From positions 1-7,121 of IMG/VR virus record IMGVR_UViG_2648501841_000011: 7,121 nt of DNA, one strand, 5' to 3'. The notes under the pieces were generated by a model. It was not told the DNA's origin, did not search any database, and saw only the letters and a program-made list of their open reading frames with translations. The position numbers were made by a program, and so were the translations under genes. The stretch is from a virus. Taxonomy: Duplodnaviria; Heunggongvirae; Uroviricota; Caudoviricetes. Below, piece by piece: positions 1,963-5,739 of this stretch (positions within the stretch are counted from its first letter, which is position 1; each line of letters opens with the position of its first letter).

Positions 1963-2376
1963 CTATTCCATCATTACTCCTGTGTAAAATATCAAAACTC
2001 GCTGCATCACTTCACTGTTACGGCACTCACTACAAATTATGTTCAATTGCCTGTCATAGCGGCGTATTTCTCCGTCTGGTAATGACCAGATAAGGTCAGG
2101 ATCAACCACAACCGGTTTCTTCAGTTTTGCCCTCGATAGTTTTTTGCGGGCGTTTTGCCAGTCCTTACGAGCCTGTTCAGATGGGAATAACCCGTAACCA
2201 GAGTTGTATACATCGCCACTGGCAACCAGCTCTCTGGCAAGAACGCTCATCAGATATCTTGTCGCACCTGTCTTGGCTTCCAGTTGCCGTAACGTCTCGC
2301 GCCCACTCCGGCGTACTAGCTCAACAACCTGCCCTTTAATTTTTTCCCGCTCTTCCTGTGTAAATACTTTTGCCAT
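1963..2376 (-). CDS. hypothetical phage protein (137 aa) with HTH-like N-terminal region; last gene of the minus-strand early operon in this window
   Basis: ATG at 2374-2376 (minus) with GGAGG SD 5 nt upstream; the ORF track's TTG start at 2391 is rejected; its SD overlaps the stop of the upstream gene (operon coupling). Function not recognised. Confidence 0.6.
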   Translation of the reverse strand: MAKVFTQEEREKIKGQVVELVRRSGRETLRQLEAKTGATRYLMSVLARELVASGDVYNSGYGLFPSEQARKDWQNARKKLSRAKLKKPVVVDPDLIWSLPDGEIRRYDRQLNIICSECRNSEVMQRVLIFYTGVMME

Positions 2377-2391
2377 AAGCGCCTCCGGCAA

Positions 2392-3257
2392 TCACTTTTC
2401 CGATACAACACGGCGGGAAGAATCAGTAATCTGTCGAACAATATCCCGGTGCTTGTTCAGCTCCCGCAGCGCGGCGCAGACTCGCTCCCACTTCTGAACA
2501 TCACTTTTCGCCCTGCGCAGCGCCAGGTTTGCCCTGCGAAGGGACGGAAAAATCAGCTCATCTGCTTGCGTTTCGGTAAACGATGGCAACGGCTGCACAA
2601 TGTCCGCCACAGTTTCTGTTTTAATTTCTTCCTGTGTTGCGGCTTCCCGGACTGGTAACGCAGCACCTGCTGGCTGAGGAAAGGCCTTACCATCATTTTT
2701 CGTTACCGGCGCGGCTTTCGGATCTGCTGGTAAATTACCCCCCGACATGCAGTAACGAAATTTACCGTTCTGATTAACGCGNNNNNNNNNNCTTTCCGTT
2801 ACCAGCGCGGCTTTCGGCTCTGCTGGTAAATTATCGCCCGGCATGCAGTAACGAAATTTACCGTTCTGATTAACGCGTGCCAGCCGCCCCGTTGCGGTTA
2901 CCACCGCCAGCGTGGAAGCAACCTTGCGAGTACTGACGCCGAACTTACCCGCCAGTTCCTCACACGTTTTAGCACCATCCTGACCGATAAACTCAACCAT
3001 CATGTCTGCGGTAACTTTTGGAGCGACCTCTTCGGTTACCACATCCGGCGCTTCAGGTTGTAGTGCCTGCCCTTCGGTTACCCCGGCTTCACCTTCGACA
3101 GCCAGAAACCAGGTGTGACCCGTTTTATCAACAACGCCATTTTTTTGAGTTCCCACAGTTCGTTAAGAACTTCTTCACGGCTGATATCAAGCCGCGCCGC
3201 CAGTTCAACAGAATTGGCTTTTCCCATCGCTTTCAGTGCATGCAATACAGTTTCCAT
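2392..3257 (-). CDS. phage protein with winged-helix-like N-terminus and an internal 32-aa tandem repeat; reading frame broken by a 1-nt frameshift at an A7 tract (plus-strand T7 at 3140-3146) and containing a 10-N gap (2782-2791)
   Basis: ATG at 3255-3257 (minus) with GAGGT SD encodes [39 protein letters not shown], then reaches the A7 run; that frame stops at 3078-3080 (59 codons), while the other frame (ORF track 2392..3156) continues [18 protein letters not shown]... for 249 codons. One extra A, or a -1 slip, would give about 288 aa. Position directly downstream of the dnaC-like gene. Confidence 0.6.
2686..2877. repeat. 96-bp tandem direct duplication (2 copies) inside the coding sequence; the first 10 nt of copy 2 are masked as N
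   Basis: 2697-2781 and 2793-2877 align at a 96-nt offset with a few mismatches, encoding twice the peptide [12 protein letters not shown](P/S)G(D/G)NLPA(E/D)PKAA(L/P)VT; N run at 2782-2791. Confidence 0.85.
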
Positions 3258-3282
3258 CGAAAATTTACCTCGTCAAAAATTC

Positions 3283-4023
3283 TCACATACCCTGACGTCC
3301 AACGTTTGACCGCCAGCTCTCCCAGTTAAAATTCACCCAACGACCACCATTCATGGTCATACGGTCCATCACCCGATCTCCGAGGAGTGTGCTCATCGCT
3401 GCGTGATTCAGGTTCGTCAGCATTCCGACACTACACATCGAAGCCGTTCTGCGGTCGACTATCTGGTTCAGCGTGACCTGCTCGTTGCGCGTATCCCGCT
3501 GCATGCCAATTTCATCAAGGACCAGAAGGTCAACTCCACAAAGCTCCTGTAAAAATTTTTCCCCGGACTGGCCGTTGTCGTAGCCGTCATGCAACACGCT
3601 CATGACATCGGACACGGTGACGATAATCACGCTTCTCCCCTTCGCCATCAGCCGATTGCCAATCGCTGCTGCCAGGTGATTTTTACCGGTACCAGGTTTA
3701 CCGCTGAACACGAAGTTTGTACATCCGGTCATCAATTCATCGGCAATGGATTTCGCCTGGCTCAGAGCATGGCGCTGACCGTCGTTCTGCACCCGGTAGT
3801 TCCCGAATGAGCACTTCCTGTGAAGCGGCTGGATGCCCGCACGGTTCAGGATTTTTTCAACCCGCACCTGATGATTCAGGCGGTTAATCTCCTCGCTGCG
3901 TTTTCGTCGTTCAGCAAGTTGCCATTCCCGCCACTCCTCCACCGTCCGGTACGGTGGAACCGCCCCCTGTGGTGCAAGTCTGCGAATACGTTCAAGAACC
4001 CCAACTGCCGCAATGTTTTTCAT
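3283..4023 (-). CDS. DnaC-like replicative helicase loader (IstB-like AAA+ ATPase)
   Basis: 246-aa ORF; Walker A GKPGTGKNHLAAAIG and Walker B LLVLDEIG; GGGGG SD upstream of the ATG; immediately follows the replication initiator gene, as in the ydaU-ydaV-type arrangement of Rac-like prophages. Confidence 0.9.
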   Translation of the reverse strand: MKNIAAVGVLERIRRLAPQGAVPPYRTVEEWREWQLAERRKRSEEINRLNHQVRVEKILNRAGIQPLHRKCSFGNYRVQNDGQRHALSQAKSIADELMTGCTNFVFSGKPGTGKNHLAAAIGNRLMAKGRSVIIVTVSDVMSVLHDGYDNGQSGEKFLQELCGVDLLVLDEIGMQRDTRNEQVTLNQIVDRRTASMCSVGMLTNLNHAAMSTLLGDRVMDRMTMNGGRWVNFNWESWRSNVGRQGM

Positions 4024-4029
4024 GACACG

Positions 4030-4992
4030 TCACCCCCTGAATCCCGGCGGTATTTCAGTGTCCGGTTCAGAAATGTGATTCACGCAACGCTGCGCGGGCG
4101 AACGCCCCAGGCGGATAACCAGTTCATCCCATTTTTCCCGGAGTTTTGCCGGACTCATGATGTTTTTTACCCAGAACGAATCCCGCTGGAGACGCCCAAA
4201 CATTTCACAAATTTGTCTGTGAGTTCTGCCATCCAGCATCCGCATTGTCCGCACGTCATTGGCCCATGCAGTCCAGTTGGGTTCTTTCGGTCTCGTGATC
4301 TCGCCATCATCGCTGGCCGCCTGCTCGTAAAGACTCACGATTCGTCCCCAGATCCACTGTGCGCACACCAAATCTTCCTGACTTCCCCACTGGCGTTTTT
4401 TCGCACTGAACACAACCGCGTCAGGGTGTCGGGTTAAAAAATTCTGTTCAGCCGTCTGCGGGTCCGGTTGCGAAGCGTCCGGACAAGAAGATCTTTTATC
4501 TGACGGATCAGGTTTTAATACTGACGGATCGGGGTCAATCATCGCCCCCCTAATCGGCAGTTTGTTATCAACAGTTGATCCATCAAAATTTGACGGGTCA
4601 ACCGTTGAGGGGGCAATATTTGACGGGTCAACTGTTAACGGGTCATTTTTTGCCGGGCTAATTTTTCTTTTCGGTTTATATGACTCACGCGCCGCCGCAG
4701 CAGCTGCTTCGAGTTTTTCCACATTAAGCCGATAGATATTGCTTACATTACGCCCACCGACCTTACGCTCTTCCTTCGTCAGCCAGCCCTCTTTCGCCAG
4801 TTCTGCAATAGCCGATTTCACTGTGGATTCACTTCTTGCACCGATCTGACGCCGGATAGTTTCAATGGCAGGCCATGACACGCCCTCGTCATTGCTGTAG
4901 TCTGCAAGACGGGCCATAACCGCCACCCTGGATAAGATCATGCCGGTGAAGGCGCACCCTTCCCAGACAAGACCATGAAGCTTGCTGCTCAT
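4030..4992 (-). CDS. phage replication initiation protein (lambda O-like role): N-terminal winged-helix DNA-binding domain, low-complexity linker, C-terminal domain
   Basis: ATG at 4990-4992 (minus) with GGGGG SD; the ORF track's GTG at 5007 is rejected. N-terminus ...LSRVAVMARLADYSNDEGVSWPAIETIRRQIGARSESTVKSAIAELAKEGWL is typical of HTH-type replication initiators; gene order cro-like / cII-like / initiator / DnaC-like. Confidence 0.85.
   Translation of the reverse strand: MSSKLHGLVWEGCAFTGMILSRVAVMARLADYSNDEGVSWPAIETIRRQIGARSESTVKSAIAELAKEGWLTKEERKVGGRNVSNIYRLNVEKLEAAAAAARESYKPKRKISPAKNDPLTVDPSNIAPSTVDPSNFDGSTVDNKLPIRGAMIDPDPSVLKPDPSDKRSSCPDASQPDPQTAEQNFLTRHPDAVVFSAKKRQWGSQEDLVCAQWIWGRIVSLYEQAASDDGEITRPKEPNWTAWANDVRTMRMLDGRTHRQICEMFGRLQRDSFWVKNIMSPAKLREKWDELVIRLGRSPAQRCVNHISEPDTEIPPGFRG
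4495..4690. repeat. putative origin of replication: iteron-like repeats inside the initiator gene (TGACGG(A/G)TC x4; palindromic TCAACnGTTGA-type sites x3 at exact 30-bp spacing) next to an AT-rich stretch
   Basis: TGACGGATC at 4501 and 4522, TGACGGGTC at 4591 and 4621; TCAACAGTTGA 4568-4578, TCAACCGTTGA 4598-4608, TCAACTGTTAA 4628-4638; T-rich run 4644-4680. They encode the repetitive linker (VDPSN...STVDPSN...) of the initiator, like lambda ori lying within gene O. Confidence 0.45.
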
Positions 4993-5014
4993 AAAACCCC
5001 CGAACACCGTGCTT

Positions 5015-5440
5015 TTAGTGCATCACCACAGCATTCCCTGCCGGGCCGCCGCGATTCATCTGGTCATACAAAACAACCGCTGACGCAACAAAATCATCGA
5101 CATCCTTCACCAGCCGATCCCTCCGTTCGACGATCTCACGGTAATATTCAGAACTGTGGCTGCGCATACGGGCCACCAGCAAAGGCGGCATCGCCTTTTC
5201 GATCGCCGGTAACAGAGCCTGCATTTTTTCAACAGCATCAGGGGTGTCTTTATCCAGCCAACGGAAAATTTTCTGGGTATTACGGGCCAGGGCTTCCGGA
5301 TGGCTGTCGTCATACAGTTCCGGGAACGTCATTCCCAGCTCGAAATACGCTTTGGTAATTTTCGCAGCCGGTACTTTTTCGCCGTCCGGATGCGCCCAGA
5401 CATTCATCGCCATGCGGATGTGTTCATGCTTGATTTTCAT
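5015..5440 (-). CDS. ydaT: YdaT-like protein (reported from memory as a CII-like regulator partner of YdaS in Rac / CP-933P-type prophages)
   Basis: 141-aa ORF beginning MKIKHEHI...; its ATG overlaps the stop of the upstream cro-like gene (ATGA overlap at 5437-5440); position second in the early-right operon. Family assignment by recollection of YdaT sequences, not by search. Confidence 0.7.
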   Translation of the reverse strand: MKIKHEHIRMAMNVWAHPDGEKVPAAKITKAYFELGMTFPELYDDSHPEALARNTQKIFRWLDKDTPDAVEKMQALLPAIEKAMPPLLVARMRSHSSEYYREIVERRDRLVKDVDDFVASAVVLYDQMNRGGPAGNAVVMH

Positions 5441-5739
5441 GAATCAACTCCATCAGATAAGCATGCACTACAATCACCTTCAGCATGAACTACATGTGTT
5501 TGCCCCAAACGAATGCCGCTCGCATACTCAGGCCAAATAAGCTCCCAATCATGGGGTCGTAGCTCCGCCCTACTTACTTGGCCTTCCGTCGCAGATTCGA
5601 TCATAAGGGCGCGGGTTGGAGATATAGCTGTTCGTCCAGACGCCATTTGCGATAAGTAAGATGGCGATACACCAAGTCTGGCCGCGAATTTCTTAGCATC
5701 ACCAACCCTTAATGATTTAATAAACTCTTTTAATGTCAT
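5437..5739 (-). CDS. ydaS: Cro-like HTH regulator of the YdaS family
   Basis: 100-aa ORF with GAGGAAGG SD; HTH segment FAARLGVSPSYLSQMASGRTAISPTRALMIESATEGQVSRAELRPHDW matches the YdaS-type signature (LGVS...G.R.I...RA..IE.AT.G.V.R.ELRP.DW); divergent from the repressor gene. Confidence 0.85.
   Translation of the reverse strand: MTLKEFIKSLRVGDAKKFAARLGVSPSYLSQMASGRTAISPTRALMIESATEGQVSRAELRPHDWELIWPEYASGIRLGQTHVVHAEGDCSACLSDGVDS

Follow-up and report, generated by a model that had tools for sequence, protein, structure and literature searches.

The window, that is, the whole stretch of 7,121 nucleotides that was analyzed, includes a lambdoid early region in which the genes for a DnaC/IstB-like ATPase and a DUF977 protein flank a split gene of the DUF1627/YdaW family (Table 1). 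Judging from its 99.7-99.8% identity, without gaps, to prophage Sp12 of Escherichia coli Sakai, the right-hand contig (2792-7121) covers the region for immunity and replication of this defective lambdoid prophage, which has been described as identical to CP-933P of strain EDL933 (PMC8630535). Sp12 has disruptions in both the integrase and the repressor, and neither excision nor replication nor packaging has been seen for it (PMC2669165). The split gene is located downstream in the PR-type operon. The segment 5437-6700 is the CP-933P immunity region, in which the CI-like gene with the RelB/ParE-type pair faces ydaS-ydaT; by position, this segment corresponds to paaR2-paaA2-parE2, which has been described as a bistable switch (PMC8630535).

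Table 1. Features in and around the split DUF1627/YdaW-family gene (positions are those of the window)
Feature	Position	Strand	Remarks
RelB/ParE-type toxin-antitoxin pair and CI-like gene	lambdoid early region
Cro/YdaS-like gene	5437-5739	-
YdaT	5015-5440	-
O-like HTH protein	4030-5007	-
DnaC/IstB-like ATPase	3283-4023	-	directly before the split gene
GAGGT, Shine-Dalgarno-like	3267-3271	-	9 nt upstream of ATG 3255-3257; direct reading
ORF1, frameshifted DUF1627/YdaW-family gene	3078-3257	-	39 native + 20 out-of-frame residues, TAA 3078-3080; 59 aa
Internal in-frame GTG	3154-3156	-	taken as the start of the downstream ORF by ORF finders and for ECs_2274 (222 aa) in the annotation of Sakai
A7 homopolymer (T7 on the + strand)	3140-3146	-	site of the A8-to-A7 deletion; zero frame CT[C AAA AAA] ATG
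Ancestral-frame continuation, -1 relative to ORF1	2792-3141	-	runs from NGVVDK... up to where the right-hand (Sp12-type) contig ends; contains the second HTH-like region
N10 scaffold gap	2782-2791
Redundant 86-nt copy of 2792-2877	2696-2781	-	start of the left-hand contig; Sp12-type allele at 7 variable sites
3' part of a DUF1627 gene	2392-2695	-	ends at TGA 2392-2394; from the paralogous Sp4-like prophage at ~1.2 Mb in O157:H7 genomes
DUF977	1963-2391	-	after the split gene

Direct reading of the minus strand bears out the coordinates given in the initial annotation, which had described an ATG at 3257 preceded by GAGGT, an A7 run, an early stop and another frame that continues from the run. 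The same ATG is the start assigned by RefSeq to the intact orthologues. In the zero frame, the native part of ORF1 ends with ...NELWELKK, and codons 37-40 are CTC AAA AAA ATG, which fixes the A7 run at 3140-3146. The -1 frame stays open in the window down to the TGA at 2392-2394. Inspection of the sequence upstream of the GTG at 3156 reveals no convincing Shine-Dalgarno sequence at a usable distance; because of this, the codon is treated as a longest-ORF call, not as the sign of a product, and was set aside as a genuine internal start.

The intact relatives of the split gene are 771 nt long and encode 256-aa proteins annotated as 'DUF1627 domain-containing protein'. The family assignment comes from the O55:H7 orthologue, which differs by one A and, when used as the query against PF07789, scores 331.6 bits over residues 91-245 (gathering cut-off 28.1 bits); the downstream ORF of Sp12 matches phrog_630 (E 3.9e-105). 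The same intact orthologue has sub-threshold matches to HTH profiles at residues 3-52 and 87-134. For the winged-helix-like N-terminus proposed initially, the support is the sub-threshold HTH profile match in the first of these segments; the winged-helix call stays below threshold because a profile search against solved structures yielded weak HTH-type matches only, the best of them to MntR (E 0.024). As read from these profiles, the normal 256-aa product is a protein with two HTH-like regions followed by the DUF1627 domain. The frameshift, after residue 39, interrupts the first HTH-like region and precedes the entire DUF1627 domain.

The DUF1627/YdaW genes used for comparison (WP_000450876.1, the Stx-phage homologues and K-12 Rac ydaW) occupy the same place as the window gene, between the replication genes and DUF977; the intact ones are, however, one uninterrupted 256-aa ORF, whereas the window gene is split. 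Rac ydaW of K-12 is a pseudogene as well, but by 3′ truncation and not by frameshift: in MG1655 (L009:4788-5240), the gene breaks off short of its C-terminus, at the start of the Rac lysis remnant, and only an A5 is present at the matching site. The gene from Rac was recovered in an overexpression screen as a blocker of a retron toxin (bioRxiv 10.1101/2020.06.22.160242). A literature search on 'ydaW/DUF1627' returned passing mentions only, and a search for the Sakai locus tags ECs2273-2275 found no papers.

The left-hand side of the window has a separate source. Positions 440-2690 are 100% identical to the prophage locus at ~1.2 Mb, and the same genomes (e.g., that of strain 319) hold the A7 copy of the gene at ~2.19 Mb; the left-hand part of the gene differs from the Sp12 gene at 2539. 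Over the 86-nt overlap (2792-2877 versus 2696-2781), each contig end switches to the allele of the other prophage copy, so that the last ~50 nt of the right-hand contig (2792-2841) carry the allele of the paralogue at seven variant sites. The window combines two paralogous prophages in one chimeric scaffold, and its N gap is a repeat-collapse join, an artefact separate from the A-run. The N10 and the 86-nt copy together add 96 nt, or 32 spurious in-frame codons, which are found in no complete genome. For this reason, the '249 more codons' initially given for the continuing frame are an inflated count, and the real genes have 217 (771 nt, 256 aa). The gap had also been taken as a sign of a homopolymer error in the same gene; since it arose by the collapse of paralogous repeats, it is unrelated to the run and says nothing on its quality. 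On this left-hand side, a gene for an alpha/beta hydrolase (838-1611, + strand) is located between DUF977 and hokD, on the opposite strand; it is not found in Sp12, where DUF551 occupies this place. In some genomes, an IS3-family element interrupts or adjoins the hydrolase region, and an 'AL1L pseudoknot' feature is annotated there.

In an alignment of the split gene with the three closest intact genes, the sole indel besides the gap artefact is the A-run, which is A8 in the intact genes versus A7 in the window. This run length could in principle be a sequencing or assembly error in a draft, the true sequence being A8 and the gene intact, a reading that was ranked first initially and is in keeping with the A8 of the closest intact alleles and with the fact that this gene also contains an N gap and a mis-joined repeat. 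It is contradicted by the finished genomes. Searches for the exact 81-mer with A7 and the same flanks found it in 287 complete genomes of E. coli, among them those of Sakai, EDL933, EC4115, TW14359 and Xuzhou21; the corresponding 82-mer with A8 is present in 164 complete genomes, A9 in a single one and A6 in none. RefSeq annotates 'DUF1627 domain-containing protein, frameshifted', a 770-nt pseudogene, in EDL933, NCCP 13914 and NJS001, and the frameshift is thus reproduced in independent assemblies. Moreover, the right-hand contig aligns to the genome of O157:H7 NCCP 13914 without gaps and, once the seven sites with swapped alleles in the final ~50 nt are set aside, with 2 base differences over 4.3 kb, and the gap artefact lies 350 nt away from the run and has another cause. 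On the strength of the exact-match searches and the RefSeq annotations, a sequencing error is rejected as extremely improbable.

The second alternative put forward in the initial annotation, a genuine frameshift pseudogene, is supported by the same comparisons, that is, by the reproduced A7 and by the intact A8 orthologues. The check proposed there was to look for orthologues with A8 and an unbroken frame, and such orthologues exist: an uninterrupted 771-nt ORF for 256 aa, colinear with both fragments, is present in CP195498, CP166722, O121 RM8352, O55:H7 DEC5B and PV15-279. The element itself is the one already described in the public genomes: the CP-933P/Sp12 pseudogene (EDL933_RS12290; the ECs_2274 region in Sakai) is identical to the window in ORF1, A7 and flanks. 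The two differ in that the CP-933P/Sp12 gene is 770 nt long with A7, whereas in the window it is joined across the N10 to the 3′ end of the paralogue and gains the 86-nt redundant overlap. The frameshift is accordingly known already at the level of annotation, where it is flagged as a pseudogene.

The prophages of O55:H7 DEC5B and O157:H7 PV15-279 are syntenic to this element, with the common gene order ydfC, ECs_2282 family, RelB/ParE, YdaT, O-like, DnaC-like, DUF977, DUF551 and hokD, and both have A8 and the intact 771-nt gene (protein WP_000450876.1). The 770-nt genes of EDL933, Sakai, NCCP 13914 and NJS001 are the same as these two 771-nt genes at all positions except the missing A. A8 is also found in a near-identical prophage of strain 2013C-3513 (99.5% over 4.2 kb), and all six of the matching free-phage records, Stx phages among them, are implied to have it as well, since each alignment spans 82 nt. 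O157:H7 descends from the O55:H7 lineage; PV15-279 we take to be a β-glucuronidase-positive strain of an early-branching O157:H7 lineage.

The simplest reading of this distribution is a single, very recent deletion that would have been inherited vertically. In the ancestral allele, residues K38-K39-N40 would have been encoded by AAA AAA AAT, that is, by an A8 run that then lost a single A, replication slippage at this run being the most likely cause. The loss is placed on the branch leading to typical O157:H7, after the split from O55:H7 and from the PV15-279 lineage, a placement based on two outgroup genomes and on spot checks among the 287 A7 matches, and the A7 allele would have been passed on vertically since. 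The predicted consequence is a shift of frame after residue 39 and the end of translation at residue 59, before the DUF1627 domain. The split gene is thus, in all probability, a genuine pseudogene in a decaying prophage, its frameshift being fixed in the lineage of typical O157:H7. The downstream frame has remained open only owing to the very recent origin of the lesion: apart from the missing A, every base is that of the intact ancestor. Across the 217 downstream codons, there is no second lesion and there have been zero substitutions since the deletion; for the latter reason, the intactness of this frame is uninformative on its continued use.

Decay is not confined to this gene. The DnaC-like and Q genes of O55:H7 DEC5B (L012:3661-4401 and 8736-9082) have internal stops next to an intact DUF1627 gene, and in strain 2013C-3513 (L006:4454-5195) the DnaC-like gene is frameshifted and the DUF1627 gene intact. 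Neighboring genes thus appear to decay independently in related copies of the prophage, so that decay is plausible here too. The same typical O157:H7 genomes carry intact DUF1627 paralogues in other prophages.

The remaining possibility raised initially, programmed slippage, would make the A7 run a selected signal, ribosomal (-1) or transcriptional, from which the 59-aa and 256-aa isoforms are produced in a set ratio. The sequence around the run has several properties that fit. The zero-frame heptamer is C_AAA_AAA, and a -1 shift on it yields ...ELKK-NGVV..., exactly the ancestral protein. The heptamer has been reported as slippery in pDEST17, where -1 frameshifting reached 25-60% (PMC1851650), and the two-ORF arrangement is stable in 287 genomes. 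Conservation within the family, structure downstream of the run and the length of the run nevertheless all argue against this interpretation.

With respect to conservation, the two-ORF layout is derived and, among the genomes examined, confined to those of the typical O157:H7 type, whereas the ancestor and the relatives have one ORF. In the other alleles of the family that were compared, neither the slippery site nor the two-ORF layout is kept, and the homopolymer itself is not conserved: the same site reads AAAAGAAAA (KRK), AAAAGAAAT (KRN, also in E. albertii) or AAAATAAAT (KIN), GAAAAAGG (KKA) in K-12 Rac ydaW, GAAAAAAG in E. ruysiae and CAGAAAGAA in a distant bacterium, in each case within a single ORF. 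A scan of other species, with one genome per species and hence a small sample, found a long run at this site in 0 of 5 loci.

With respect to stimulatory elements, the 90 nt downstream of the run show no significant RNA structure (-27.6 kcal/mol; mean of the shuffled sequences, -25.3; z = -0.75), and the sole SD-like element, GGGA, is located 3 nt upstream of the run, as against 10 nt for the SD-like stimulator of dnaX. The site resembles the A_AAA_AAG sites of dnaX and of IS elements in that both are A-runs in lysine codons which allow -1 re-pairing of tRNA-Lys. Unlike those sites, the window has the non-canonical heptamer C_AAA_AAA, which is outside the X_XXZ_ZZN set (PMC4066793), and lacks a stem-loop above shuffled expectation, an SD-like element at 10 nt and conservation among homologues. 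On this heptamer, the A-site tRNA-Lys re-pairs fully and the P-site tRNA-Lys with 2 of 3 bases, and an A_AAA tetramer is embedded in it. A_AAA-type tetramers that lack a stimulator frameshift at background level, about 0.15% (PMC4066793).

With respect to length, the run of 7 is below the length at which slippage by the host polymerase is productive, the criterion for which is typically 9 and sometimes 8. Many genomes show selection against runs of 9 nt (PMC1088944), and when E. coli RNA polymerase transcribed out-of-frame GFP reporters, rescue was undetectable on any run below A8 (PMC6260861). T7 polymerase, by contrast, slips on runs down to A3 (PMC6260861). This difference bears directly on the closest known parallel, the attB1 site of pDEST17 (Belfield et al., 2007, PMC1851650), in which the heptamer and the frame are identical to those in the window and a 1-nt deletion is likewise 'corrected' by a -1 shift. 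The measurement in pDEST17 was made in a T7-promoter vector; because T7 polymerase is highly slippage-prone on short A runs, unlike the host polymerase, the 25-60% figure is discounted. Based on the above considerations, programmed recoding appears highly unlikely.

A related interpretation accepts the deletion as accidental and differs from the pseudogene reading in assuming that a meaningful full-length fraction (a few percent or more) is produced through unselected slippage or A-insertion. Under this interpretation, which we consider unlikely, the A7 allele may still yield the 256-aa protein, at an inverted ratio of long to short products, so that the 59-aa HTH fragment would predominate over the full-length protein in cells whose CP-933P PR operon is on. 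It draws on the C_AAA_AAA frame, on the slipperiness of this heptamer in pDEST17 and on the exact recreation of the ancestral protein by a -1 shift; furthermore, the 'savior' correction of indels is a recognized phenomenon (PMC5009743), and the PR-type operon of CP-933P is transcribed in a subpopulation (PMC8630535). Arguing in the opposite direction, A7 is under the threshold of detectable rescue with the host polymerase (PMC6260861), and there is no stimulator downstream of the run. Since the pDEST17 figure comes from a T7 system and bare A_AAA tetramers are near background, the pseudogene reading leaves room, at most, for a small, unselected full-length fraction, which may come either from -1 slippage of tRNA-Lys at C_AAA_AAA or from an A added to the transcript. 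Should leaky decoding prove to occur, the site would offer a natural setting in which to study slippage on C_AAA_AAA under native transcription.

The coexistence of A7, A8 and A9 in E. coli would also be expected of a phase-variable contingency locus that is switched between A8 (ON) and A7 or A9 (OFF) by reversible replication slippage. This explanation is barely credible given that run length tracks lineage: almost all of the A7 carriers among the matches listed are O157:H7, and among the sampled A7 carriers (O157:H7-type genomes) no switching between A7 and A8 within the lineage was seen. A9 occurs in one genome and A6 in none, and the gene belongs to the early phage operon of a defective prophage. 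A run of 8 bases is, moreover, short for high-frequency switching. The only complete genome with A9 is that of E. coli MBT-5 (NZ_CP058682.2; L014:2427-3198), in which the gene is annotated as frameshifted; this A9 could be a second independent indel or a homopolymer error in the assembly.

The lesion has left traces in annotation resources. The profile phrog_16668, which has 59 positions, matches the ORF1 product end to end (1-59/59; E 1.4e-40), including the out-of-frame tail, and thus appears to be a database family seeded by a pseudogene fragment. Two other profiles, phrog_11856 and phrog_29124, look like further fragments of the same gene. In the Sakai annotation, ECs_2274 (L017:20311-20979) is a 222-aa ORF that starts at the internal GTG within 'prophage Sp12, lambda-like phage' and bears no frameshift mark; the DnaC-like gene is followed there by an unannotated gap of 126 nt.

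The 59-aa PHROG profile and the 222-aa ORF of Sakai illustrate how lesions of this kind may seed spurious protein 'families', and the present case also indicates that a homopolymer frameshift beside an assembly gap need not be an error. Because A7 and A8 separate typical O157:H7 from O55:H7 DEC5B and O157:H7 PV15-279 among the genomes examined, the A8-to-A7 change is a candidate lineage marker. The biological weight of the finding is small: the split gene would be another decaying gene in a defective prophage of O157:H7, one that RefSeq has already flagged.
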